A DNA stretch of 64,000 bases, from positions 372,001 to 436,000 of the forward strand of contig JAYWIR010000023.1 in assembly GCA_036172245.1 (NCBI GenBank). The letters are read 5' to 3'. The DNA comes from Raillietiella orientalis. Taxonomy: Eukaryota. Position 1 is the stretch's first letter; every line of letters starts with the position of its first letter. A model generated the notes under the pieces. It did not search any database. It was not told where the DNA came from and worked only from the letters and a program-made list of their open reading frames with translations. This document shows positions 1,073 through 63,023 of the stretch, one piece after another. The translations under genes and the position numbers were made by a program.

Positions 1073-3679
<2,607 letters not shown>

Positions 3680-3754
3680 ATTTTATGCCTTACTTCATCT
3701 CTAATTTTTTTTTTTTTTTTTTTCATTTATTTTGTGACTTAATATGCGAATTCG

Positions 3755-11464: not shown

Positions 11465-13270
11465 ATGTGGTTTCAGACGAAGGAGCAGGGCATGCCTTGG
11501 TGGAGTGCTTTCTGCATATCCTTTTTCGTGCTCGGCTGGTGCGCCGACCGAACTCGCGCCTACCCTGGCGTGTACCAGTGGCTCCTGGACTCCATCGGGT
11601 GGAACTCGTTGGGCGGCGAGTCCAGTACGACGACAATCCCACGCGCAAGCGGGAGCAGCGCCTACGACGATCTCATCAACGAGCTTTGGAAGCGTTACGA
11701 GGAAAGAAACGCTGGGGGCGCAGCGCTCGAGTCGATGCATGGAACTTCGCCCCCAGAGGAAGACTTCGACGAGCATTTCCAGGATGAAGCGCTGAGGAGC
11801 GTCCAGCGCATCCTGGACATCGAGAGAGAAAGGCTGGAAAACTCTACCCGAACTACCACCCCAGGAGTCGAGGAAGCCCCTCCAGGAGATGGGGGAGACG
11901 TCGACTACTCCGGCTTATTTGACTCGCTGTTTAGCGGCGATCTCTCCTTCGATAAGGTGTTCGGTGCCAGTGAGCAGGATGCGGATCTGAAATCCTTGCT
12001 GGCGAACCGGTCGTCTCCAAGCGTTCCTGTCTCCGAAGCACTGGTCGGCGGCGCCGGCAGTAGCGGAACGAAGTCTTCCCAAGTCCAGCAAACAGCCCAG
12101 AAACTGGAAGAACTCCTCTCCAGCGAGCTGCTAAATCTGTTCTCCGAGGGATTTCTTCAGGACAAGGGCCAGGGGCAACAGATGCCAGAGGGAAGTCAAA
12201 GCCCTCTTCCTCCTTCCGTGCAGACTCCTAATGTTCCGCTTTGGCTGCGGTTCCTGTACTCCAAGCGGGACCACCTGGAGAAGATCCGCAGGAAACTCTC
12301 GAACATTATCATTCAGACCTTGAACCTGGACGCTCGTCCAGTGTCTCCAGGAAGTGAAACCGACCAAGAGATCGATTCCCTCCTGAAGCCGCTGATGCAG
12401 CACTTGTCAGAGGAGCACAAGAACGATCGCTTCAACATCTTCTCCATCTTCGGGAGCAAAGATTCGCTCTTGTCCAGGGTGAAGCAGGACGTCAGGGCGT
12501 TTCTGTCTTCTTGGAAGCTTCCCTCAGGCGGCAGTGACAGCGGCAGCTTGCTGCAGGGCTTCGTGCCTCTCCCACAGGCGATCCTGTCGATCAAGGACGG
12601 GAAAGGCTTCAAGGAGCATGGCAAGATCTTGGGCACTCAGCACACCGGAAACCGCTCCTCGGAGATGAAGCAGCACATGATTCAGAAGCTGCAGGGTAGC
12701 CTCATGAACATGAACTTGGAGTACGGCTCCCCCAAGAAACTTCCAGAAACCATAGTCACTGTCCATGTCCTCGACGCACCTCCTAACGTAGACGGGAACC
12801 TTGGCAGCGGATGGGCCCCTCAAGATGCAGGCAAGGGCCCTCCTCTACAGGGATCTTCTCTAGGAACCTATCACGGAGAATATCCACCCTATTACCAGGT
12901 ACCCACAAGCTCTCCTCCCAAGTCGTACCTACCAGAAGTTAGCCGGGAGAAGCACATCATCCATGTGCCTCCCGAGCAAGCAGGCCATCAATACCACCAC
13001 CTCATCCACCAGCGCCCCCCCAAACCGTTGCCCATTCCTCAGTACACTCCTGGACAACTGTTTCACCAGTACCACAGTCACGATCAGTACGGACCAGGAA
13101 TCCAAGATCCCTCTTGGAGCTTCTCGGACTTCAATCCAGAGAGGACAGACTTGCATTTCGACTTCTTGTTCGACTGGAACAGCATGTGGAAGCACAAGAT
13201 CTTAGGGAAGAAGAAGTCACACTCGTATCGGCCCTTCTTCGGTGATCCTACAGTGTTCGTGCCTGTGTAG
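11465..13270 (+). CDS. Uncharacterised, probably secreted protein (601 aa; possible start at ATG 11492), single coding exon
   Basis: 1.8-kb uninterrupted ORF with GC-rich third positions. Hydrophobic N-terminus MPWWSAFCISFFVLGWCADRTRA resembles a signal peptide. Acidic/Ser-Thr-rich N-half and Pro/His/Gln/Tyr-rich C-terminus. No recognised domain. Confidence 0.8.
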   Translation: MWFQTKEQGMPWWSAFCISFFVLGWCADRTRAYPGVYQWLLDSIGWNSLGGESSTTTIPRASGSSAYDDLINELWKRYEERNAGGAALESMHGTSPPEEDFDEHFQDEALRSVQRILDIERERLENSTRTTTPGVEEAPPGDGGDVDYSGLFDSLFSGDLSFDKVFGASEQDADLKSLLANRSSPSVPVSEALVGGAGSSGTKSSQVQQTAQKLEELLSSELLNLFSEGFLQDKGQGQQMPEGSQSPLPPSVQTPNVPLWLRFLYSKRDHLEKIRRKLSNIIIQTLNLDARPVSPGSETDQEIDSLLKPLMQHLSEEHKNDRFNIFSIFGSKDSLLSRVKQDVRAFLSSWKLPSGGSDSGSLLQGFVPLPQAILSIKDGKGFKEHGKILGTQHTGNRSSEMKQHMIQKLQGSLMNMNLEYGSPKKLPETIVTVHVLDAPPNVDGNLGSGWAPQDAGKGPPLQGSSLGTYHGEYPPYYQVPTSSPPKSYLPEVSREKHIIHVPPEQAGHQYHHLIHQRPPKPLPIPQYTPGQLFHQYHSHDQYGPGIQDPSWSFSDFNPERTDLHFDFLFDWNSMWKHKILGKKKSHSYRPFFGDPTVFVPV

Positions 13271-19939: not shown

Positions 19940-22740
19940 TCACATGTTCTCTCTTTCGCAATCCAACTCCTCACTGCCGAACTGCGGAGGCGGAACTATA
20001 GCTTGCTGACCAGACGCCGCCCGCGCCTCCGCAGGGGCGTCACCAGACAGCTGAATGCTGGTTTCCACATGGTTCTCGTGACCCACAGTCGACTCGTGCG
20101 GCATGAGCATTGGAGGCGATCGGAACAAGTAGCAGAACGGGTAGTAGAAAAGGTTGAGGAACGTGGACGCGTAAAGGTCGGCGTAGCGGAGGACCTGGCA
20201 AGCGAAGAAGGTCAGGCGTGAGCCTGTCCGGAATAAGGAGCCCAGGTTGCCGTAGGCATTGTCCAGCTTTTGACTGATCTCGTGGATAGCATCGTGTACG
20301 AAGCGGATGTCCGGCTTGTCCTTTGTGCTGCTGTCCAGGTTGCGGTACAGATCGCCCAGAGCCACATCCAACGTTTGCAGCTTCTGGAAGAGCAGGCACT
20401 GGTTCGTCCACACATGTAGCTCGTTCTGCAGCTCCGGAATGATGAGGAATGTGCGCCAGCCACTTGTCTTCTTCGACTTCAGGATGTCGCCGAAAATGTG
20501 GTCACCGATGTACAGGACATCCTTGCCCTTGGCTCCAATCAGTTGGGAAAACACGTCCCGCGAACCACCGGAGTACACCTGACCTGGCCGCAAGGGCCCC
20601 ACGTGCGAGCCGATGCGGAGGGCGCCAGTCTCGCACTCCACCTGCCGTAGGATTGTCCCCTCCTCGAAGAACAGCGGCTTCTGAGCGTCCACGACGATGA
20701 AGTCGAAGAACGACTTCCAGGACGCGGGCTGCGCGCCCCCGCGGGGGGCGAAAACTTTATTCATTCCCTTCCATCCTGTTTCCTCTCACCTCTGACACAC
20801 CTGGATGGTCAAACAGGTACTGCATGATCCTCTGCAACACGCGCCCCCCCGGATGAGGTGGAAAAGTTCCCTTTCCCCTCCCCCCTCCCACTTATCTCCT
20901 GAGCTTACCTGCGTATATGCGTAGTTGCTGTTGGTGAGCAGGAAAGTCTTGGCGCCGTTCTCCCGCATCCTGCTCAACAGCAGTGGCAGCCTCTTGTCGC
21001 GGTACACGAACTTGGACAGATTCTCCAGTGTCTCTTGCTTCAGGCTGCCTTGGTCGTGGACCCAGGATACAGACGCTCGGATGTCTTGGAAGATAGAATT
21101 GAAGGACATGAAGATGTCGCCGCACTTGACTCCTGTTCCGGTCCTAGGATGGAAGGAGGGACCCGCCGCTGTGCTTTCGCTTGCACTTCCGGAGGGGAAG
21201 TGGCGGCTGCCCTGGCCGACTTACGCCGTGTACTGCTGGCATCTCTCGAAGTAGTCAATGACGCAGGCGATGAGATAGCTCTCTGGTTGGTTGAACAGAG
21301 TGCTCAGGACGTACACCCTGCTCTCATCGTACGGCAGGAACCGGTTCGGATACAGCTCGTACATCTCCGAACTGAAGAGTGAGGGAGGGGGAGAGCAACG
21401 CATGGGAAAAGTTCAGCAGGGAACGCGTGCGTAAAATAAAGGGAGGACACACTCACGGCATGAGGTACTTGAACCCATGGACGCACACCAGGATGTTGCC
21501 ATATCCATCCATCTTCAGCAGGTTTCCATAGTGTGTGTCAAACCACAAACCTCTAAAACGAAAAGTGCGCGTCCAGCTGGAGATGCGGGAAAAGGGAACA
21601 AAAAGAAGTGGGAAATGGTGATGGGGAGAACTAAACGTCTACCCAAAGAAGAAACGCTGAGGAATAAGAACGGGAAGGGAGACAGAGGGAAACGAGAACG
21701 AAGCAACTCCAGGACAGTCGTACTGCGTAGGCAGTCATCATGCGGTAGGAAACACGACGACACGCGCCCTTCAAAGTGAGAGAGCGGGAAGGGGTTCGTC
21801 TGTGAGATCCGAGACGTGGCGGGCTTGAGTGCGCCTGGCGAGGCAAGGAAACGCGATGGAGGTGTTACCGACACGGTTTGCTTGAGAGAGCTGATTGGGA
21901 AACGAATGGGGGAGGGGGATTCTTTGAAGGGAAAAACAACAGCGAAGCGCCGGGAGGGACACGGACGCCCTGCGGGCACACACGCGCTCGGAGGCTGGCA
22001 CGTTTGGTTTTCCTTGGAGTTCCGATGAGGAGGACAGGGTACAGTGATACCTGAATCCAGCACGACGTCCCACGAAGCTCTCCAGGGAACGCAGCTTCCG
22101 GCTTGCACCACGAATAACGCGATAACGAAGCAAACGGTTTTTTCCGGGCGCTCTTGGTGCGTGCCGGGGAACGTCTCCCGGTGGTCGCGAGCTGGCCGTC
22201 CGGGAAAAGCAAGAGAAGAGAAGACAAGCAGGCGGGCGAAAAAGGTGTCAGAGCAGCATTCGGATAGCCTCAGGGAACGCCCCGTCACGAACTACTATTG
22301 GCAAGCCGTATGCACAGAGAGGGAGACAGACGGTCGCCGAACTGAATGGAGCTCGGACACACGCTAGAGTGCGCGCACATGCCAATCAAAGGGCCAACGG
22401 CTGGCTATCGCCAGAGACAGAAAGCAGCCTCTCCCCTCCCTGGCAGTGCTCACCGCGCTCGAAAGACGGAAAGGGAGGACCCGCCCGCTGGCCACTTGCC
22501 TGATCGGGAACCGCGGGTCGTAGTTGAAGTCTAGCATGGCCGCAGGGTAGCCGATAGAGACCATTCTCTGCAGAATGAGCCTGAAGGCCAGCTCCTCGTA
22601 CTGCGGCGATTTGTACACTGGGAGTCAGCATACCTTTCGGAAGAGTCACGCTGGCGCCATACTCACCGGCAATCGTATAGTCGAGGTCGAAACCGAAGAA
22701 ACGGATCTTCTCCAGGTGCAAGCTGCGGTTCACGAAGACC
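19940..22740 (-). CDS. NT5C2: Cytosolic purine 5'-nucleotidase (cN-II, HAD family); first coding exon(s) not resolved
   Basis: Exons 22740-22667, 22617-22500, 21552-21457, 21371-21225, 21143-20909, 20831-20790 and 20728-19940 join in frame. [10 protein letters not shown] motif [52 protein letters not shown]. Confidence 0.96.
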
Positions 22741-25700
22741 CTGGAATACACGAGCCGTTTGCAGTGACTGCAGGGGGGACGCTGTCATCGACTCGCAGAA
22801 AGAGACCTGGAACGGCGAGCGAGCCGAAACAGCAACGAGTAAGCCCCTTTCCTTTAGGCCACATCGCCTCCCTTATCCTCCTCCTCCTCCGATCATTCCG
22901 CCTGCTTCCCTGTGCCAAGAGCTCCTCGACGACTCTCAATCGCCTCAATAAGGCTGCGTTCCGGCCAAAAATTTCCTGGGCGACGCATCCTGCCAATCCA
23001 CGTCGGCGGGAATCGCCCGCGATCCTCACAAGGACTACGGGACGAAAAGGGACCAGAGCCTCCACCAACGCGCTGAAGGGCGACGAAGCGTGTGCAGTTT
23101 AAGAGTTGCAACTGAAGAAAGCACCCTGGGGGACGCTCCCTTTCTCTTGGACTCTCGATTCCCCTTCTCCGGCAGCTATGGTTGTCCAGAGCACGCGTCC
23201 CCCCGTCCTCCGACACCTTGCTGTCACCTTACGGAATGCTCCCTACAGGAGAAAGGCAGCGCGATAATCCTTTCCCCCTCCCCTTCCTATTCTGCTTCTC
23301 CCGCCATCCCACGGCTGCCGGAGCCTCCCTATGCATGCAAAGACCACGTGCACTTTCGCGTATCTTCCCGAATCCCTTATATTGGACCCACATCCCGCAT
23401 TTTCGGATGATTGCAACTAACTCCCTCCACCAATCTCAAAGAGAAGGGCAAGACGCCAAAGATATCGAAGACACGGGCTCTTCACTCTTCCAGCTGATTC
23501 ACCTGAAACCATCTTGAGAAGATGGACATACTCGCCACAAGCACCAAGAACCGGGACAGGACCATGGGGTTCTCAAACCAGAATACAGAGGTCGACCTGC
23601 AAGGCCCTTCCTCGTGTCACCACCTTCTTTCCCAACACCGGCGCGAGTGGCCAGGCAGTTCATCCTCTTCCTTCCCCGGTGATAATCCTCACGACTATCC
23701 GTCTTGGGGGATCACGCGGTCAGTCCCAAAACGAATAAGCCCACCGCTTCCATGCATGTGTATTTTTTCTGCTCGATTCTATTGGCTCGACACTGTGCAC
23801 CTTCCCCACCCCGATCCCGCGTACCGGGGCAGGCGGGGGAGTGGACCTGCGAGATTCTTCAGATTCTGAAGGCGAGTGCACGTCGACAGTTCTTTCCACT
23901 TTATTTTCATTGCCCCTCTCCTCTTCTTTTCCCACTGGACCTGCGTACGCCATCGACGTGACATGAGCGTGTGCCTGCAGACCACGCTGGATAACTCTGA
24001 AGTAATACGAGCGAAGCAGGTCTTCTATTCGAAACGACTCCTACGCCCCGTATTCCTATTTCGCCATCCTTCCCTGCAGGAGAGGCGCTCTGCTTCTCGA
24101 TCCGTTTCTGGGGATCTACAGACGGCCGCTCCTGATCGGAAGAGACAGGGGAAGGGAAGGGAAAAAAGGTCAGCGAGAGAGGATAAGAGATACCACTAGC
24201 CGGGCAGGCCATGAGGCAATGCCAGAGAGATGCTGAGATGAGCGGAACTGAGAACCACGGGACAGGCAGTCACAAAAATGGAAAGGAGGGAGGGAGGAGA
24301 GAGACAGAAGACGAGAGCAACTTTTCATTTCTCGATTATATTTCGTTAACCAAATGATCGCCTACACCTTCACTGGGGGTTTCCGGAACATACAGGTAGG
24401 AGGCGTGGTTGTCATTGCAGGAGCAGGGACGAGGTTTCCCTGCTGCGGACGAACCATCGGTGGAGCGGAGCTGCGTCTCCCATGTGAACGCGCCTGCTGC
24501 TCTTTTCGTGTTCCAAAATAGCAACTGCGCGCACGCAACGAGAGGAACGCTGTGTGGAAAGGGCAATTTGCTGAGGGATAGGCGGAGGTTCATTGTGGTT
24601 CATGTGCCACCGCGAAGCTCCGGGAGAGGCAGAAACTCGAACTAAGCCGTCGAGGCATCGATGAGCTGGCCAGCATTTGCAACGAAAGGACAAGAAGGAG
24701 AAAAGGAATGGGGAAAGGAATAACAAATAAAAGCTAAAAAGCCAAATAAATGGACGAAGACGAAAGAAGAGGAGAGGGAAGCAGCGTAGTGGTGTGTGGA
24801 AGGCTTCATGATCAGGAGGATTTCCACATATCCCCGGCGCACGATGGGGAATGGATCAGGGACGCTTCCCGTACCGAAGCTGCTCACGGACCAAAATGCA
24901 ACAGCGTTCAGTTGTCATCCAGCAACACAGGGTGCTCCTGGCGAACTGTAACAGAACACAGCAACAGGAGAGACTTCTTCACCACATAGAAGTAAACCGA
25001 CAGACAATGGGGAACCACAGAAGAACGCGGCTGTTAGATTCTGGCCGTGGTAACTATGCGTCCCGCAATTCCGTTCGGAGCATATGGGCAGGCGCGCACG
25101 CAGCACTCTTCCGTCGGCAACAAACGGTATGCGAAGGACGTGAGCAGAGGTATCTTCCTTGGAGCGACCCTTGGAGCCACACGTGGACCTGCCCAGGCGA
25201 GGGTACACGCCACAGCAGGGGATGAAACTTCGATAGGAATCTAAGGGCAGCTATAGTCCTTTGCTCCTCCTTCCCTCCCTTCCTCCTGTAGAGGAGCATC
25301 GGCATTGCCACAGACATTCGCAAGAGATCTGAGGATCTCCGCCCCTCACCCATGGCACTGTCTACTCCTCTTAGACAGGTAGGAGGGGGGAAAGTAAAAA
25401 AAAAAAAAGAGGAAAAAGGGGCGCTAAGAGCGCAAAAGAGCACGACGCAGGACATGAAGACTTCTTGGAGAACGCGGGTCGCAATCCTCCACGGCCAGAC
25501 AGAGAAACGCCATTCTCGCATCATATCGCTTTTTCCCGAGAACTGGTGAGGCAGAAGACCGAAGAACTCTAACCGAACGGGAAGCAGTAGATCTGCGGAC
25601 TAAGAGGGACGACGAGGAGGAAGGCCGACTCCCGGCGAGCGAGAGCCTTGGTACGAGGTCGCGCGATCAGACTCACGTGAAGGAGGATCCCATGAGTAAC

Positions 25701-42761: not shown

Positions 42762-44106
42762 CAGCGTTTCCCAAACTCAGCTTTTCCTATGACGGAACAC
42801 TTCACAAATCCTGAAATTTTAACGGAAGCCTTGGTTATTTTATAGGGAAGGAAGAGATTAATAATGAATAAATTAAGCAAGTAAATATAAGAGTTAAGAA
42901 AACAAAACAAACTTTTAATCTCAAATTTTAATTATATAAAACAAAACACATGAAAATAGTAACATAAACCAGCGTATATATAGTAAATTGTAATGTAATT
43001 ATTAATACAGTTGAATGTATCTTTTCCGGTAGCTCGTTCTTGTGGATATTCGCACATGAGTAAATCTTCTATACGATACATAACGAACAAATACCAGTGA
43101 TACAGCGAGCCCTGCGATATCTGTAGACTCATCCATTTGCAATACAGAATCACTGCAAAGTCTAAATCGGTGAATTAGCTCTTTCCTCCATGTCGGACCT
43201 TTGATGTGGCATGAAACAGTATTACTTGATAATGTATCTATTTTTTTAGCAGACTCTTCTCTTGAGATGCATGATGCAATGCCTTTCTTCACATAAGGCT
43301 TGATGACTTCTCTCCAGTTGTATGAACTTCACCAATGCGGTAACACGCGAAAAGATTCCTCTGCTGCATTTCCATTTTCGGTTTTAGCAATCGTCTGAAG
43401 TTTAGATTTTTTCAGTGGATCGCTCAATCTCTTAAAACAAATGATATCTTTTTCTTTGCAATGAGCATGTTTCGTTTCTAAGTGCCTACGTAGTTTAGCT
43501 GGAGCCAATGAACTGTTTGCTAGCATTCTATTACATAAACACATCAGGAGCATCTGTATTGCCAAAACACGTAAATCCCCAATTTAAATAACTTTCATCG
43601 TATTTCCTTTTCGGTATGCTCTTAGATGACATTTGTTTCTTAATATTAAATTTTGAAGAAATCACAGTTTCTTTTCCAATCATGGATGTGTCAGAAGTAC
43701 TTTCCTCTCCTTGTTTGAAAGTTCCTGTCTTTAGCCAGCAATCCATGGGTAATTTTTGAATAATATTGAAATCCTAATGTTAGTCAGAACTGTAACAGAA
43801 GCAAAAAAATTTTGTCATGAAAAAGACCGCAACACAAAAAAGCTAAATGTGAAATCATTGGCACTTTTTAGTAAATGTGTCAATAATGTAAAAGCAATTG
43901 TAACAAGAATGATCTGATAAAATGTTTAGTAACGAAATTTTTAGTAGCAAAGTGAGGAGCGCCTGAGTTTCAGACATGTTTTAACTTGATGCAGGATTTA
44001 AAATATATTAATTTTCATAATTTTTCACGGAACAACTTATTGACTCTCCGCGGAACACTGGTGTTCCGCGGAAAGTCCTTGGGAAAACATAGTTTGGGAA
44101 ACAGTT
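42762..44106 (-). mobile_element. Internally deleted hAT transposon (Buster/Charlie, ZBED5/SCAND3-like transposase pseudogene)
   Basis: Frameshifted transposase: KRKYDESYLNWGF, CLCNRMLANSSLAPAKLRRHLETKH (BED finger), LSSNTVS, LQMDESTDIAGLA..VFVRYV. TIRs CAGCGTTTCCCAAACT / AGTTTGGGAAAC. Subterminal CGGAAC repeats and palindrome TCCGCGGAACAC..GTGTTCCGCGGA. Confidence 0.9.
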
Positions 44107-44991
44107 AGAGTCTAACTCCTGCCTTTTCGAACTGCAGAAGAGTGGGAAGGAAGGAGCTTCCATCCTCTGATTTTAAGGACATTAGCTCTGTTTGCTTTAA
44201 TGTGAGGTCCGAGAGCAGGGATGGAGCTTCCCCTTTCTCAGTCAAAAAGGTTTTACTAAAAATCGACTCAGTATTACTCAAACAGATTTTGATTTGTGAA
44301 GCTCACAATAAGATGGAACAATGACAGGGGCACCAGAAGTTTATGTACACTCTGTCTGATTGGGCATGATTATAAAAATTTGTCTAGAAACGATGTATCG
44401 TTTCTAAACTGAGGTGCGCACTGACAAACTCCTTTCTCACTTTCAGAGGTTACACTAATGCAATGTGAAAACTACCTGGATACGTAGCACGAATACCCCT
44501 GAATTTTGAAATTTGCAAAATAACTAACCGATCGAAATTTCCAATTTCCTAGAACTTGGAAATTTCAATTTTTAATCTCTCATAAATCTGCTGAGAAATA
44601 GATTCCGTACTCTAAAAATGCGGACTAATGCAAAACAAAAAGGAATAAACCTTCTGAGAATAATCAATGAAGCTCGTATCATGTTTCCATTAGACAAGCT
44701 TTTGTGTCATTTTTGCAGATAGGAATTGAATTAAAGGATACAGGGCAAGAGTTTACCTAGAAATATGAATTTCAACCAATGTTTCTGCAAGCGAAGATAC
44801 TAGAACTAGTTCTTTAACAACGAAGGCAACCTTGGTAAGGGAAAAGAGATCTAAGGGAATTAATTGTGTGAAGCCGCAGTTGCTAGGGATTTTCTACTCT
44901 GTAGCAGTATGTAGACCTCATGCACTTGCAAGGAGATCAGATTATAGTAACAGGCTAAAGAAATTGCTGTACGAATCACTCCTGGTGAGAC

Positions 44992-45183
44992 TGGTTAAAA
45001 ATAAATACTAATACCTGGGATTCTATGTGGTAGCTAATAAAGATTGCGAAGAGAAACTGCATCAGGATTTATGAGTCTTTTAAGCACGCTGGTATTTCCA
45101 ACTGATCATAGAGAACAAAGTTGATTTGGCATCTGTAACGTTCTTCTAGACCTGGAGTGATAATAGGTAAGAAAGGATTGGAG
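44992..45183 (+). pseudogene. rpsC: Bacterial ribosomal protein S3 fragment, Wolbachia/Rickettsiales-like, frameshifted
   Basis: Translation across small indels: LKINTNTWDSMW / ANKDCEEKLHQD / ESFKHAGIS / IIENKVDLASVT / SSRPGVIIGKKGLE. RPGxxIGKKG is the bacterial S3 KH-domain signature. Confidence 0.85.
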
Positions 45184-47533
45184 CGGAGCAGCTATTTAAA
45201 CTTAGACTGAACCAGTTTCAAAACTTCACTAACAGGCGTAGGATTCCTTCAAGAAAAGTGAACAGTTTTTGTAAAAACGCTGAACATATGTAAGAAAACA
45301 ATTTTCAGATGAGCTGTTTTCTACTCTTAAATTGGAGATTAGTCTAAATTCACAAAATTACAAACGGCAACTTGTATGGAAAAGAACTATTAAGAGAAAA
45401 ATAATTCAGGTTGGATTAATCAGTGCAAGTGAGGCTCAGCAAACTTTAAAGGAAAATTAAATGACCGAGGATTGGATTGGAAGATTGTGAAAATGAGATA
45501 AGAGAAGGCAATGAGTAGTAAAGTGGAATTAGGGAAAATGGAAACCTTGCGGGCAAACGGTCTGAAGCATAAAACGAAAATCATGGTAATACGAAGAATC
45601 AAGGAAATAGTGGGACTAATACGAAAAATCATTTACGTTTCTAAACATAGTCTTGAAAAATATGTATATAATTTCTCAAGCCTGAAACAGATATGAGCAA
45701 AAAAAAGTCCTATTCCATGTAGCCAAGGCAACTTTGGAATCCTCAAAGTATTTGAATGGATGGTAAGGGGGAAAAAACCATAATCATCTCTTTGTCTGAA
45801 TACGCATAAATTGTGGCAGAATAGAAAACAATTTTGAGAATTTTGGTCACTCTCAACAAACCCTGCACTGCAAATTAGAAAATTGCACGTTGTAGAGATC
45901 GAGGACGATTGAAACACTCGATAATGTTCACATGTTGGTGAATCAAGTAGGTAGCTTTGAAGAGGAATATATCTTTCAGTCTAATTTGGTTGGATTAAGT
46001 TGACTTGAAAATAGGCAAAACCAGAAAGAATCGTCTCGAAAAACGGGTGAACTTGAGCTTACTGCTAGATAAAGATCCTTACTGATTGGGGCTTTCTTTT
46101 TGTTTATTATAGTCTGTTTTATTTCTTGCATAAGGTGGTTTACTGTAAGTACTTCATATCCAATCTAGCTGTGAGGCAAAAAAAAAAAAAGCACCAGTTT
46201 CTTGCTTGAATTTATTGTTAAAACGATCATGTGCTGATGGTTATCATACCATGTCGTACATTGGTTACTTATCATTCGTTGCTCACGATACTTGCTACCG
46301 AACTATCATTTTTTATCCCGGTTGTAATGAACTTCGGCTTGCAACTTCAGTTGCAATTTTTGCAATAATAATTTATTCTCTCATTACTTCAATCTTTCCT
46401 ATTTCACTCTAAAAAGACTGAAATGATTCCATCTTTAAAGCAATAGAAAAACCAAAACCAGCCCCACAGAAATTCTGTTTACCCCAATATTTTGCTTCAT
46501 CTTTGTAATACTGGGCATAAGTAATAGTCTAAATGTCAGCTTGCAAACATTCCATTACAATTCTCAAATTTGCATCGCATTTTTTCAGTCATTCAGAGTT
46601 TTGGAGATTAATTTCCTACTATCAAACAGTTCTATCTTGCATCATACTTCCTGAATGCATGCTAGAAACATCCATGGTGCCTTGATGCTTTTGTCTCACT
46701 TTGTCTGTTTTTCTTTTATTGATTAGAATGGGCATGAGATTTTAAAAGTATTTGTTAACTACACCAAATTTTAATCTCAATATCAAATCACTGCTTTTTT
46801 TTTTTTTTACATAACTTGGCTGTACATCACTAGAATCTTTTCATTTTCTGTTACCATCTTTTTGTTCTAGAATGCTTTCAATTTGTCAACACTTATTACA
46901 TCTTTCAATTATCTCTTTACTGACATAATCCTGCAGTTGATTAATTGCTTTGGATCTGCATTCCTTCTCAATTGACAGCTGCAAATGTGGAAAAGAAAAT
47001 GTTTGATGTCACCATGTGCATGTGGACGCTTTTCTCATTGTTAATTTCATTTTCATACAAACTGTTGGAAATTTCTTGTGTACATGAGATAACTGGCACC
47101 CCAACTTTTTTCAACTCTTCTGTTTTGTTAATAACCTAATGTTAATGAGATTGCTGAAGTTTTTCACTTCTTACTTGTATATAATACTTGAAGTCAGAAT
47201 CCTTATCTAATGATTTTTATTTTTACTGTATTATCTATTATTTCCTTAGCCATTAATTTTTCATGTACCTTGACTTTGTTCATATTATCTCAGTGATGGC
47301 TACTCAAGCCTGCTTAAAATTGTTTAAAATCAAATACAACCCTAAAGATCTGGTTTCTAATTAATGAGCCTTTCAAAACAGATACATAATCTGCATTGTG
47401 TTTGTATATTCGAAAGATATAATTTACTGCTTCTTTATGCAATGCTTTCAACTGAGAACTTTCACAAAGCAGTTTAGTAAAATAAGGATTGTTTGTTTCA
47501 AGATTCATCTGAAATGTGATTAGAAAAAACATT

Positions 47534-48217
47534 TTAAGCTCCAAAACAGCTCCTACCTTTGTAAGCACTCTGTAGTGCCAATGCAATACTATGTACATCG
47601 CTTTCAATTATGTTTGCCCAGTTTACAACATCTCCCATTTCTTTGAGAGCCATTTTCAAATTATTCACCAGCAATAACCAATTCTGTAACTGTTTGTTGA
47701 AGTTGGAAGAATTGTGGTATAGACGCTTAGTTTCAACATCAATTTTCTTCTGATTCATGTATGCTTGAGCCACGCTAAAATCGAAAACACGGTTAAAACC
47801 TGCAAAAATCAAGCACACAGCATGCCCACAAGAGGCCTTCTAACGATCACAAACGCGGATTACATGTCGCTGGTTCTTTTCAGGAGATGTCAAAAAACTA
47901 TGAATATTGTATCGATCGTGTTGGCATGATTTGCATGGCGTGTCGCCATGAAACGTGTAGGTTACTAGAGTACCCACAAAAATCAAGCTACCAAAGCAAC
48001 TCGAGAAACGAATGCAAGTTTGAAACATTACCCCAAGTTTAGGTGATCCACTAAAGTATCTGTTAATGACACTGCGGCATCGGTGGCTGATTTTAGCAGC
48101 TTTTCTACAAAGGTGGTCATTGAAAGGAAGGAATTCATTGTCATCCATCACAGTACCTTGAGTCTCCTTTTTTTGGTTCTGTCGTGCATGGTGCTCCTTT
48201 AGTATAGAGGCCAACAT
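47534..48217 (-). CDS. BLOC1S1: BLOC-1 subunit 1 (BLOS1/GCN5L1), ~124 aa
   Basis: Exons 48217-48157, 48104-48032 and 47774-47534. MLASILKEHHARQ..LTDTLVDHLNLGVAQAYMNQKKID..ALKEMGDVVNWANIIESD..AYK. Confidence 0.93.
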
Positions 48218-59550: not shown

Positions 59551-60009
59551 CAGAATGAAGGATTTTCTGCAGTAAGGAAATCCATGAAGCACAGGATCAG
59601 GTTCTCTAAAGGTGTATCTTACATCCTCCGAGAAAGGTACAGTTCCAAAGATTGGTTGATGGTAGTTGGAAGGGAGTATTTTCGTATTTCACCGCTGTCC
59701 CTCTTTTCTTCAAATTTATGAAGTCCTCCGAGTAAGGTGTGGGCAGAGTATTCCGTGGGGCAGCAGAGTTACCAACGCCCGTGTTGTGGTGTTTATCAGT
59801 ATGAGTGTGTATTTCAGTATCAGTTCACTACGTTTTCCTTTCGTTTATTCCATGCAGATGATAAAGTTTTTATCTTGGTGTGAAGTTCAGGCCCCGATCT
59901 TGGATTCAAAGCGATTAGCACGAGTGTTACTTCGCTGTGCGTTTTTTTCATCTCATTTTCTGAATGAAAACCATGTCCTCAGCGCCACTTTCTTCCAATC
60001 AGAGAAAAC

Positions 60010-60046
<37 letters not shown>

Positions 60047-63023
60047 GGGGAATTGTATATTCATGTTGAGAGAAAGGAATAATGATCTCATTCAGTCATT
60101 TCAAATTTAGTAAAACTCAATTTATCGCTCCTCCAATAAAAAAGGTTGGTATTATGTATAAAAAGCGTCTCTGCGTTTACGTGTGCGTATTTGTATTTCA
60201 TTGTACATTTCTTTCCAGTCGGTTTGATGATGCCCACGAGTCGGTTCTCCGGGTGGCGCGTGGGTGGCTCTCGAAAACTTATTGCCCAGAATCCTTTCTC
60301 TAGCTTTCAGGTTTTCCAAAATTTCCTTCTCCTTTTTTTCGTGATCTTTTTCTTCTTAATCTCAGGAAAATAAAGGAGACCTCAAGAAATGTTTTGTGGT
60401 TTGTTCGTGTTTTATTTCAAATTGACAAGCCGTTTCCCCTTTTTTAAAAAAAAAAAAAAAAAATTGTCTTGCAGTGTGACAGCTCCGACTTGTCGTGTGT
60501 ATTATAAGTTGCAGGGAAAGTGGGACCGCAAGGTAACGGTACGGACTTCCAGATGTGTGTCCCGGCAGCCGACGTGCGGAAGCCTGGGTGATGGCAGCCG
60601 AAGAATGTCGTACAGTTGACGTGGGCTCTTCTGCATTGCAGAAAACGAAATGAAATGAAAAATTGGAAGTTTTTTTTTCTTCCTTCCCCCCCCCCTCCTC
60701 TGTCGTGTTTTTTTTCCACCTCATTTCGTTTTCCGTGTTTCGTGTCTTTTGCTCTCGCAATCGCCTTGTCCAATCTCATGCGTGAGAAACCTGTTTGCAC
60801 AAGTCGGTGAGATCTGCGCAGTGCAATGCAGTCGGAAGCGCTCGTATACATCTATGTATCTATGTTGCCCGTGTACAATGCGAAGCAGCGTGTTCCCTTT
60901 GGAATTCTGTCCTCCAGCTGGTCTTCAAAAGGATCTTAGTGACTGATTAAGGTAAAATACAAGTGCGTCAAGTATGGAAGACACCGAATGTTGCCGTTTT
61001 TGTAAAGAAAGAACGGAATTTATCCAAGACCTGTGTCAGAATAAAGCAAGGAATTTTTTTTTTCTGATGAAGCAACTCCAAGCAGCATTTTTCTTTTCTC
61101 CAGATATGAAGTCATTGCATCTCATGCTTCACTCTTAATTAGCGTCGTATCGTCGTTGGTTAACGCATGTTTTCCGCCCACATTCGATCTAATGACGTTT
61201 TCTGTTCAGATAACGACAAGGAAGACACTCTGAGAGCACAAATTACGCATCCGTCTGTAATGCCATTCAAGCAAATTATCTACCCACCCTCTTGTGAAAA
61301 AAGTGTTCCTCTCTACAAGTGCTTTGAGAAAACACAGGCAAGATGTTTCTGCAAGAGTGAAACCTGCTGGTCCCATCTACCACGCGGATCACATTGAGCA
61401 CAAGATTGGCACGCCCGTGTGCGAAGTATGTCTGTGTGAAGGATCTTACAATATAGATAATTCGATTTCAGTGGTTTTCGGAGTCTGCTTGCCCGAGTAG
61501 GTGTCACCTGGTACAGATCACTATCCTTATTTTCCGATCGGCGTGAAAAATGGATCTTTCTGAGATGTGTGTGTGTGTGTGTGTGTGTGTGTATTCTTCA
61601 GACGACATACTCCTTCATCGAGACCGTTGAATTCTACGGAGTGCATCGTGGTTGATTCGATGCATCCAGGTTTTCTCCATTCGTCGGAATGAAACTGAAG
61701 ATGGAGCTTTGCCATCAGTGCTTTTAGAAAAAATCGATTGTTTTTTCTTTCCTGTTTCCAAAGTCTGCGAAACCCTCATCGAATGGAAGATCCCTGAATA
61801 CCATCGGCTAGTCTTGAGTCATACAAATCAGTTTCTTTCATTTTTTTTTTTTTCCACCTCATGTTTTCCGTATGTTGAAGTCATGATCAGTGTTCCATCT
61901 CCTTGTTGGTTCGCCCAAGAACAGTTGCTGGCGTTCTGGAGACAGATTTCCGTCTAACGGCATTGCTATCAGAATCACGTTCCATGCTGGCGTAGAATGG
62001 GAAGTTTTATTCACAGTTCAGATTTATGCATCCCTGATTTGCCTTTTAATCCTTCATGTTTATTTGGTGCTATTGCACACCACCTACCCGTCATAGGACG
62101 CTAGTATTGCTGTTCTGGTCACAATTTTATTTTGGTCAGTCTTGTACAATTCATAACCTTTACTAGCATGCTCAGAGTGTCTTCCTGAAGCGTGTTTTTT
62201 CAGCGACCTGGTTCGCTTGGCGAGCAGTTTGACGCGTGTAACACGCTCTGGGATAACAATTTTTTACATCCAGAGTGGAACCGATAGAGAAGCCAAACAT
62301 CTTGATTTCGCTTGTCTTTTCCGTTGCCTTATCCAGGAAGGATTGGTGTATTCCATCTTGTTTGTTTGTGTGTGTGCCAAAACAGTCAATCACGAATCTC
62401 AAAAATGAAGGTGCAATGTCGACGTTCAGTGCTCAGATCACATGGAGAGCCTGGAGAAACTGTTGGTTTCTTGGATCTTAGTAAACCTACTAGCTGTCTT
62501 TGTTGCGATACTTCTTGAGTATATCCAAACAGGGCAACTGGCTCGGATTTTGTTTTGAGCAAAGTCTTTTGTGCAGATTTCCGGACTCAATAGAAGCAAT
62601 TCGGGTTCCAGGGTTCTCCAAGTCACTGCATTCGTCATATGTGTGTGTTTTAAAGAGTATTCCCCCCTTGCAAATGCATTTCCGAGTAATGTTTCCACTG
62701 TCATCATCGCGTCTGTCGAGAGAACTCTGGACACGTCAGTCTACATTTCTTTTTGTCTCTGTGTCCGCTTCTGAGCATATGAGCGCTGTTTTCAGTCCTG
62801 AGTGCCAGTCGTCGGAATATCGAAAAATGTTTACGAGAAGTGATCCAGGGTACAATATAGTTTCAAATATGTTTTGCAGAGCACGGCTCGAGGACTCTTA
62901 TTCCAGAAGGCTGCAGAAGCTTGCAAAAAAGCTGCAGAAACTATGTCAAGAGATGCCTGGGTATGTTTCAGAGTCCTGGCTACACGTCGGTCGCCAGATG
63001 GAGAACGAAGGCAGCGCCCACAA
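59551..63023 (+). CDS. NOSTRIN: Nostrin-like F-BAR protein, partial (exons 59551/59554-59636 and 62880-63023; remaining exons probably lie beyond the window)
   Basis: Spliced peptide NEGFSAVRKSMKHRIRFSKGVSYILRER|ARLEDSYSRRLQKLAKKLQKLCQEMPGYVSESWLHVGRQMENEGSAHK matches the FCH/F-BAR pattern GF..L....F.KEL..IL.ERA.LE..Y.K.L.KLA. EMPGYVSESW resembles insect Nostrin. NAGNAG acceptor at 59548-59553. Start exon not identified. Confidence 0.75.
61566..61592. repeat. (TG)n microsatellite
   Basis: About 13 TG units read directly. Confidence 0.9.

Follow-up and report, generated by a model that had tools for sequence, protein, structure and literature searches.

How did some 190 nt of bacterial-looking DNA come to lie among host genes, from which bacterium did they come and do they still encode anything? 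A preliminary description of the 64-kb stretch of DNA analysed here (the window) had recognized in it the N-terminal KH region of bacterial ribosomal protein S3 (uS3, encoded by rpsC), spread across small deletions and frameshifts, and the peptides that it described are indeed present on the + strand. The limits first given, 44992–45183, are correct to within one base; the exact limits of the rpsC-like piece are 44993–45182 on the + strand, a length of 190 nt.

44993–45182, + strand: Wolbachia rpsC (uS3) pseudogene fragment, as assigned by blastn, nhmmer, identity to the closest sequence (L002) and the tree

Source of the rpsC-like piece

The piece corresponds to about nucleotides 31/32–248 of the 618-nt Wolbachia rpsC (~217 nt of the donor gene), that is, to uS3 residues ~12–83, which make up the N-terminal segment together with the beginning of the KH domain. 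Across 44993–45182 it reads in two alternating + frames in the order LKINTNTWDSMW / ANKDCEEKLHQDL / ESFKHAGIS / QLIIENKVDLASVT / SSRPGVIIGKKGL, with LKINTNTWDSMW, ESFKHAGIS and SSRPGVIIGKKGL in one frame and ANKDCEEKLHQDL and QLIIENKVDLASVT in another. Real Wolbachia uS3 proteins contain KINTNTWDSIW, KLHQD, ESFKHAGLS and SSRPGVIIGKKGL, and the motifs that had been taken for those of Wolbachia RpsC were found in the S3 proteins of wCfeF and of the symbiont of Meromenopon meropis (as ESFKHAGLS in the case of the third peptide). A single-frame read-through, with X at its four stops, was compared by phmmer with 5.8 billion proteins; two of the 18 candidates had E ≤ 0.01 and both were Wolbachia S3, the best being the 30S ribosomal protein S3 of wCfeF (E 5.0e-8) and the second that of the Wolbachia symbiont of Meromenopon meropis (E 5.2e-7). 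In the reverse direction, tblastn of wCfeF uS3 against the window placed residues 12–83 on 44995–45183 (E 2.7e-12). The read-through matched KH_2 (PF07650) at a sub-threshold 16.4 bits (Pfam cut-off, 22; E 0.0081), the C-terminal S3 domain (PF00189) was absent from it, and neither the DNA profile nor tblastn found anything past gene nucleotide 248. With a broken KH domain that scores below threshold, and no C-terminal domain, the piece is, as a protein, no member of the uS3 family; it is a gene fragment that encodes nothing.

For the comparison at the DNA level, a back-translation scan with the wCfeF protein, covering one genome per prokaryote species, yielded 543 confirmed relatives, and the best 80 loci were kept. 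When these 80 were compared with the window by blastn, 39 HSPs had E ≤ 1e-3. The top 20 were all Wolbachia rpsC on 44993–45182 (best, L002; E 1.7e-53), matches of Ehrlichia and Neoehrlichia reached just the first ~50–78 nt of the fragment, and HSPs outside the fragment were few, 27–41 nt long and AT-rich or poly-A. When 21 Wolbachia rpsC genes were combined into a DNA profile, nhmmer gave one significant match in 43000–47500 (E 7.3e-42), which spans model positions 31–248 of 618 with no continuation on either side. Identities, counted over aligned sites in a MAFFT alignment, were highest to L002, a metagenome-assembled genome (MAG) whose uS3 is 99% identical to that of wCfeF (173/190 bases, 91%), followed by wMoz and L001 (172/190 each), filarial strains of supergroups C, D and J (155–161/190) and representatives of supergroups A and B (145–149 of 187–190). 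Ehrlichia, Anaplasma and Neoehrlichia shared 108–130 of 187 bases with the fragment (58–70%), and other Rickettsiales shared 101–115 of 184–187 (54–62%). A two-codon ‘NT’ insertion in KINTNTWDS is common to the fragment and Wolbachia, whereas Ehrlichia and Anaplasma are without it.

The phylogenetic analysis comprised the window and 37 of the best 80 loci—all 22 that were labelled as Wolbachia or behaved as such, 10 from Ehrlichia, Anaplasma and Neoehrlichia and 5 from other Rickettsiales; three near-duplicates among the Ehrlichia/Anaplasma loci were left out, as were 40 MAG loci from more distant Alphaproteobacteria. The alignment was cut to the columns of the fragment and analysed with IQ-TREE (TPM3u+F+G4, 1000 ultrafast bootstraps). 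The split that unites the window with the F-type sequences (L001, L002, wMoz, L005 and Paracimex) and filarial C/D/J strains against all other sequences had an ultrafast bootstrap (UFBoot) support of 98, the non-Wolbachia clade was set off with a support of 95, and support within the F/C/D/J group was just 56–64. The window has the F state at eight of the nine sites fixed between F and A/B representatives, and it splits 2:2 at the four sites fixed between F and C/D/J representatives. The tree assigns the donor to the group of Wolbachia made up of supergroup F and filarial C/D/J, with F-type sequences as the nearest sampled; any finer assignment within F/C/D/J is unjustified because the fragment offers only 190 nt. 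Sequence comparison thus confirms the origin in Wolbachia rpsC that had been proposed from motifs, given that the fragment nests within the Wolbachia tree with other Rickettsiales included and is 91% identical to an F-type sequence, and the BLAST search and rpsC phylogeny that the preliminary description had named as checks returned closest relatives that are all Wolbachia (among the best 80 of 543 loci).

Decay and age of the piece

Against all close Wolbachia, the fragment shows four deletions and no insertions (1, 20, 1 and 5 nt; 27 nt in total). None of the four is a multiple of 3, and each shifts the frame:

45032–45033, + strand: scar of a 1-nt deletion, GGTA|GC compared with GGTATGC in Wolbachia; frame shift
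45070–45071, + strand: scar of a 20-nt deletion, codons of residues ~38–44 (SIRSYIN) lost; frame shift
45101–45102, + strand: scar of a 1-nt deletion in an A run, from the alignments; frame shift
45137–45138, + strand: scar of a 5-nt deletion, from the alignments; frame shift

Read through in a single frame, the fragment contains four stops. The first ~31 nt and the last ~370 nt of the gene are missing; the fragment lacks a promoter, a start codon and the end of the gene, as well as any neighbours from the operon. Compared with twelve close Wolbachia, 14 substitutions are private to the window; they are distributed 5:4:5 over codon positions 1, 2 and 3, and 10 of the 14 change the residue. Ten pairs of live Wolbachia differ at 4–24 of the same columns, with 3–20 of the differences at third positions. 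The even spread of the private substitutions is therefore that of neutral decay in an unused gene, not that of a live gene, and the fragment is a non-functional, neutrally decaying pseudogene. Frame-breaking deletions and a neutral substitution pattern both bear out the decayed lateral transfer that had been suggested, as well as the argument that indel decay speaks against contamination by a live symbiont: a live rpsC would be intact, and four frame-breaking deletions are present here.

Neutral substitution in insects proceeds at some 2e-9 to 1e-8 per site per year. With a maximum-likelihood terminal branch of 0.094 substitutions per site for the window (IQ-TREE), the insertion would be very roughly 10–50 million years old, an age that is an upper bound because part of that branch length may have arisen in a donor lineage that is not sampled.

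Host surroundings and rival explanations

Three host genes lie on the same contig as the fragment, which is joined to host DNA on both sides at the assembly level:

~2480–3680, + strand: fidgetin/spastin-like AAA ATPase exons (tblastn against a Wolbachia ORF, 34–40% identity)
20012–22748, − strand: NT5C2, cytosolic purine 5'-nucleotidase (Pfam PF05761, E 2.2e-68)
47534–47839, − strand: last coding exon of BLOC1S1/GCN5L1 (PF06320, E 3.1e-25, profile positions 41–113 of 114)

We take the name of the AAA ATPase from its motifs, and the Wolbachia ORF that matches it is presumably FtsH, judging by position and size. NT5C2 has several exons, which are GC-rich, and several short introns (aligned exons lie as little as ~44 nt apart). 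All named sequences among the best 120 of 1,063 NT5C2 matches were from arthropods (59–71% identity), with no nematode, and human NT5C2 scored ~40–50 bits lower. In a rough FastTree analysis of the window exon and 31 hand-picked named sequences from the best 120 of 1,063, the window did not fall among the hexapods but, on a long branch, grouped with the myriapod Strigamia and the sea spider Pycnogonum (local support for this group, 0.98). Because this set held only arthropods, the tree shows no more than that the host NT5C2 is arthropod-like and probably either not that of a hexapod or else fast-evolving.

The window is heterogeneous in composition, with a GC content of 0.54–0.57 across the gene-bearing 20–26 kb and 0.31–0.32 across 50–58 kb. 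GC-rich DNA at 11465–13270 (+) holds an open frame of 601 codons, rich in S, P, G and Q, for which we found no Pfam family above threshold and no homologue by word-index search or full HMMER search of 1.84 billion representatives; the frame could encode a protein particular to this lineage and probably disordered, either whole or as one long exon. Neither Rfam families nor tRNAs were detected across the window.

The fragment is intergenic, 2.35 kb beyond the BLOC1S1 stop codon and on the strand opposite to BLOC1S1. Its flanks match none of five Wolbachia genomes. They had been called AT-rich host repeat DNA, of which the first part holds (GC content, 0.38 on the upstream side and 0.35 downstream); the second, repeat DNA, is not supported, as the flanks, like the fragment, are single-copy within the 64-kb window. 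A DNA search of the whole window with the five Wolbachia genomes returned only the rpsC piece, apart from chance matches to poly-A or AT-rich DNA, and neither rplV, rplP nor any other rpsC neighbour was found in the window using ORFs from the 20-kb rpsC neighbourhoods of three strains. At the protein level, tblastn of 1,715 stop-to-stop ORFs of ≥80 amino acids from one complete Wolbachia contig (1.145 Mb) against the window gave nine HSPs at E ≤ 0.01: two on the rpsC piece, four on the host AAA ATPase (2.7–3.5 kb) and three weak ones (E 0.002–0.01). The earlier remark that rplV and rplP are lacking beside the fragment holds in both of these ORF searches.

Several candidate matches were examined and rejected. 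The Wolbachia ORF match on 2946–3517 reflects universal AAA+ homology with the host ATPase and no transfer. A second Wolbachia piece at 45248–45293 was dismissed as chance, as it matched an AT-rich intergenic stretch of one genome (E 0.002) and none of the other four. Matches to Wolbachia genomes by blastn at 60005–60046 and nearby are poly-A runs. Long runs of this kind (60010–60045 and 60446–60463), which produce spurious Wolbachia matches, could be the tails of retroposed copies. The remaining candidate was a continuation of the gene at 45389–45451 (+), where 21 residues resemble uS3 106–126 and are co-linear with the fragment (window-wide tblastn E 2.6–4.6). When the 1.5 kb that follow the fragment were shuffled 150 times with base composition kept, one shuffle reached its score of 19.6 bits; only 28 of 63 nt are identical to L002, and the DNA profile finds nothing there. 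We treated it as chance because a continuation of the same age should be ~90% identical; chance is the most likely source of the resemblance, though it does not fully explain it.

The nearest transposon trace is a probable hAT-type remnant, which appears to end ~0.9 kb upstream of the fragment:

42766–44102, − strand: probable decayed hAT-type (GTF2IRD2 / FAM200-ZBED5-like) remnant, from ORF features and inverted repeats

The remnant holds broken or frameshifted ORFs at 43002–43773 (−), for which a language-model feature match of 0.94 to GTF2IRD2 / zf-BED / FAM200-ZBED5 clusters is a lead only, and it has no Pfam match. Imperfect 28-nt inverted repeats (42766–42793 and 44075–44102) bracket it and leave out the fragment. 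The suggestion that the fragment had been inserted into a LINE remnant found no backing, in that reverse-transcriptase, endonuclease and other LINE domains were absent from the 25 stop-to-stop ORFs of 42.4–48.2 kb and neither junction of the fragment has a poly-A tail.

Taken together, the fragment is very probably a nuclear Wolbachia transfer (NUWT), a dead relic downstream of BLOC1S1. It shows three features that define a NUWT: Wolbachia phylogeny, contiguity with host DNA at the assembly level and inactivation. Wolbachia resident in the host germ line would have supplied stray DNA, of which a short piece of rpsC would have been joined into a host chromosome, presumably by end-joining repair of a double-strand break; neutral, deletion-biased decay of the inserted piece then followed, as its sequence shows.

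Sequencing projects on arthropods often contain reads from Wolbachia. PMC6126470 likewise points to this, and because the contiguity of fragment and host is that of the assembly alone, a read from a live Wolbachia could in principle have been stitched into a host contig. Such an artefact or contamination is very unlikely, as a live rpsC would be intact, whereas here four frame-breaking deletions accompany 14 private substitutions without codon-position bias; moreover, only 190 nt are Wolbachia-like amid ~19 kb or more of non-Wolbachia DNA on each side, and a chimeric join would normally bring in a longer stretch including rplV or rplP, neither of which is present. A source outside Wolbachia, either an organellar rps3 or another member of the Rickettsiales (Rickettsia, Midichloria, Ehrlichia or Anaplasma), might be entertained given that RPGxxIGKKG is common to all bacterial-type uS3 and that Pfam alone yields a sub-threshold KH_2. 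The identity of 91% to Wolbachia, against 58–70% to Ehrlichia, Anaplasma and Neoehrlichia and 54–62% to other Rickettsiales, the nesting of the fragment within Wolbachia in the tree and the shared ‘NT’ insertion leave this source a vanishingly small probability and refute it for the taxa sampled; for an organellar source, 91% identity to Wolbachia leaves no room (in a comparison set without mitochondrial rps3).

The two other rivals accept a nuclear transfer and differ over its later history. The NUWT copy could have been captured by, or inserted beside, a mobile element and then spread, so that this locus would be the product of transposition or duplication and not the primary integration. 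The hAT-type remnant ~0.9 kb upstream fits this, as do the duplicated NUWTs reported for Brugia malayi (PMC3849323) and Drosophila ananassae (PMC4299567). We nevertheless regard such spread as unlikely: fragment and flanks are single-copy in the window, the inverted repeats around the hAT remnant exclude the fragment, no transposon domain is adjacent and, in a weak test, the 28-nt junction of the 20-nt deletion had 0 matches in a metagenome contig collection. Alternatively, the relic could have been put to use by the host, for example in a transcript, be it the 3′ UTR of BLOC1S1 or some non-coding RNA, or by serving as a regulatory element. It does follow BLOC1S1, 2.35 kb past the stop codon, on the opposite strand though, and some B. 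malayi NUWTs are reported to be transcribed (PMC3849323); with no open frame, no sign of constraint in the substitutions and no Rfam match in the window, a use of this kind is extremely improbable. A primary nuclear transfer from Wolbachia that has since decayed is the reading that we retain.

Comparison with known nuclear Wolbachia transfers

The NUWT phenomenon is well known in arthropods and nematodes—its wide extent was reportedly first shown by Dunning Hotopp et al. in 2007—and the fragment is one more instance of it. As a record of past or present infection, it adds one data point, with an F/C/D/J-type donor and an arthropod-like host. Elsewhere, NUWTs have been reported to reveal past Wolbachia in lineages that are now uninfected, as well as replacement of one supergroup by another (PMC4046930, PMC12693587). 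By itself, one relic of 190 nt is of little value; to be informative it needs a genome-wide NUWT census, knowledge of whether the host is infected and the state of the locus in relatives; its value would be higher if the host lineage is without live Wolbachia, or if F/C/D/J-type Wolbachia has never been recorded there. The host may be a non-hexapod or fast-evolving arthropod that carries no live Wolbachia today, with the fragment as a palaeosymbiosis marker of F/C/D/J Wolbachia about ten million years ago, a tentative reading that we consider possible and, on balance, doubtful; if true, it would extend the host range and history of the clade that gave rise to the nematode symbionts. NUWT fragments are also of practical concern, as they can yield false-positive diagnoses of Wolbachia by PCR or from reads.

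Among described cases, Brugia malayi is reported to contain hundreds of NUWTs that are short gene fragments (PMC3849323), and NUWTs of the mite Tropilaelaps mercedesae are reported as confirmed by PCR (PMC5467014). Like these, the present fragment is a short part of a Wolbachia gene that mutation has disabled and that lies co-linear with host genes, without operon neighbours; unlike them, it is one 190-nt piece examined here. Wolbachia genomic fossils closest to filarial and clade-F strains are described from Dictyocaulus viviparus (Koutsovoulos et al. 2014, PMC4046930), and ‘ghost’ NUWTs in filarial nematodes free of Wolbachia are described as traces of infections since lost (PMC12693587). 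The fragment resembles both in being short, inactivated, co-assembled with host DNA and a sign of past infection, and differs from both in that the host is arthropod-like, not a nematode, and that one fragment stands against hundreds. More generally, it is like nuclear copies of organellar DNA (NUMTs and NUPTs) in its presumed capture at a chromosome break followed by neutral, deletion-biased decay, and unlike them in that its donor was a facultative or obligate bacterial symbiont and not an organelle.
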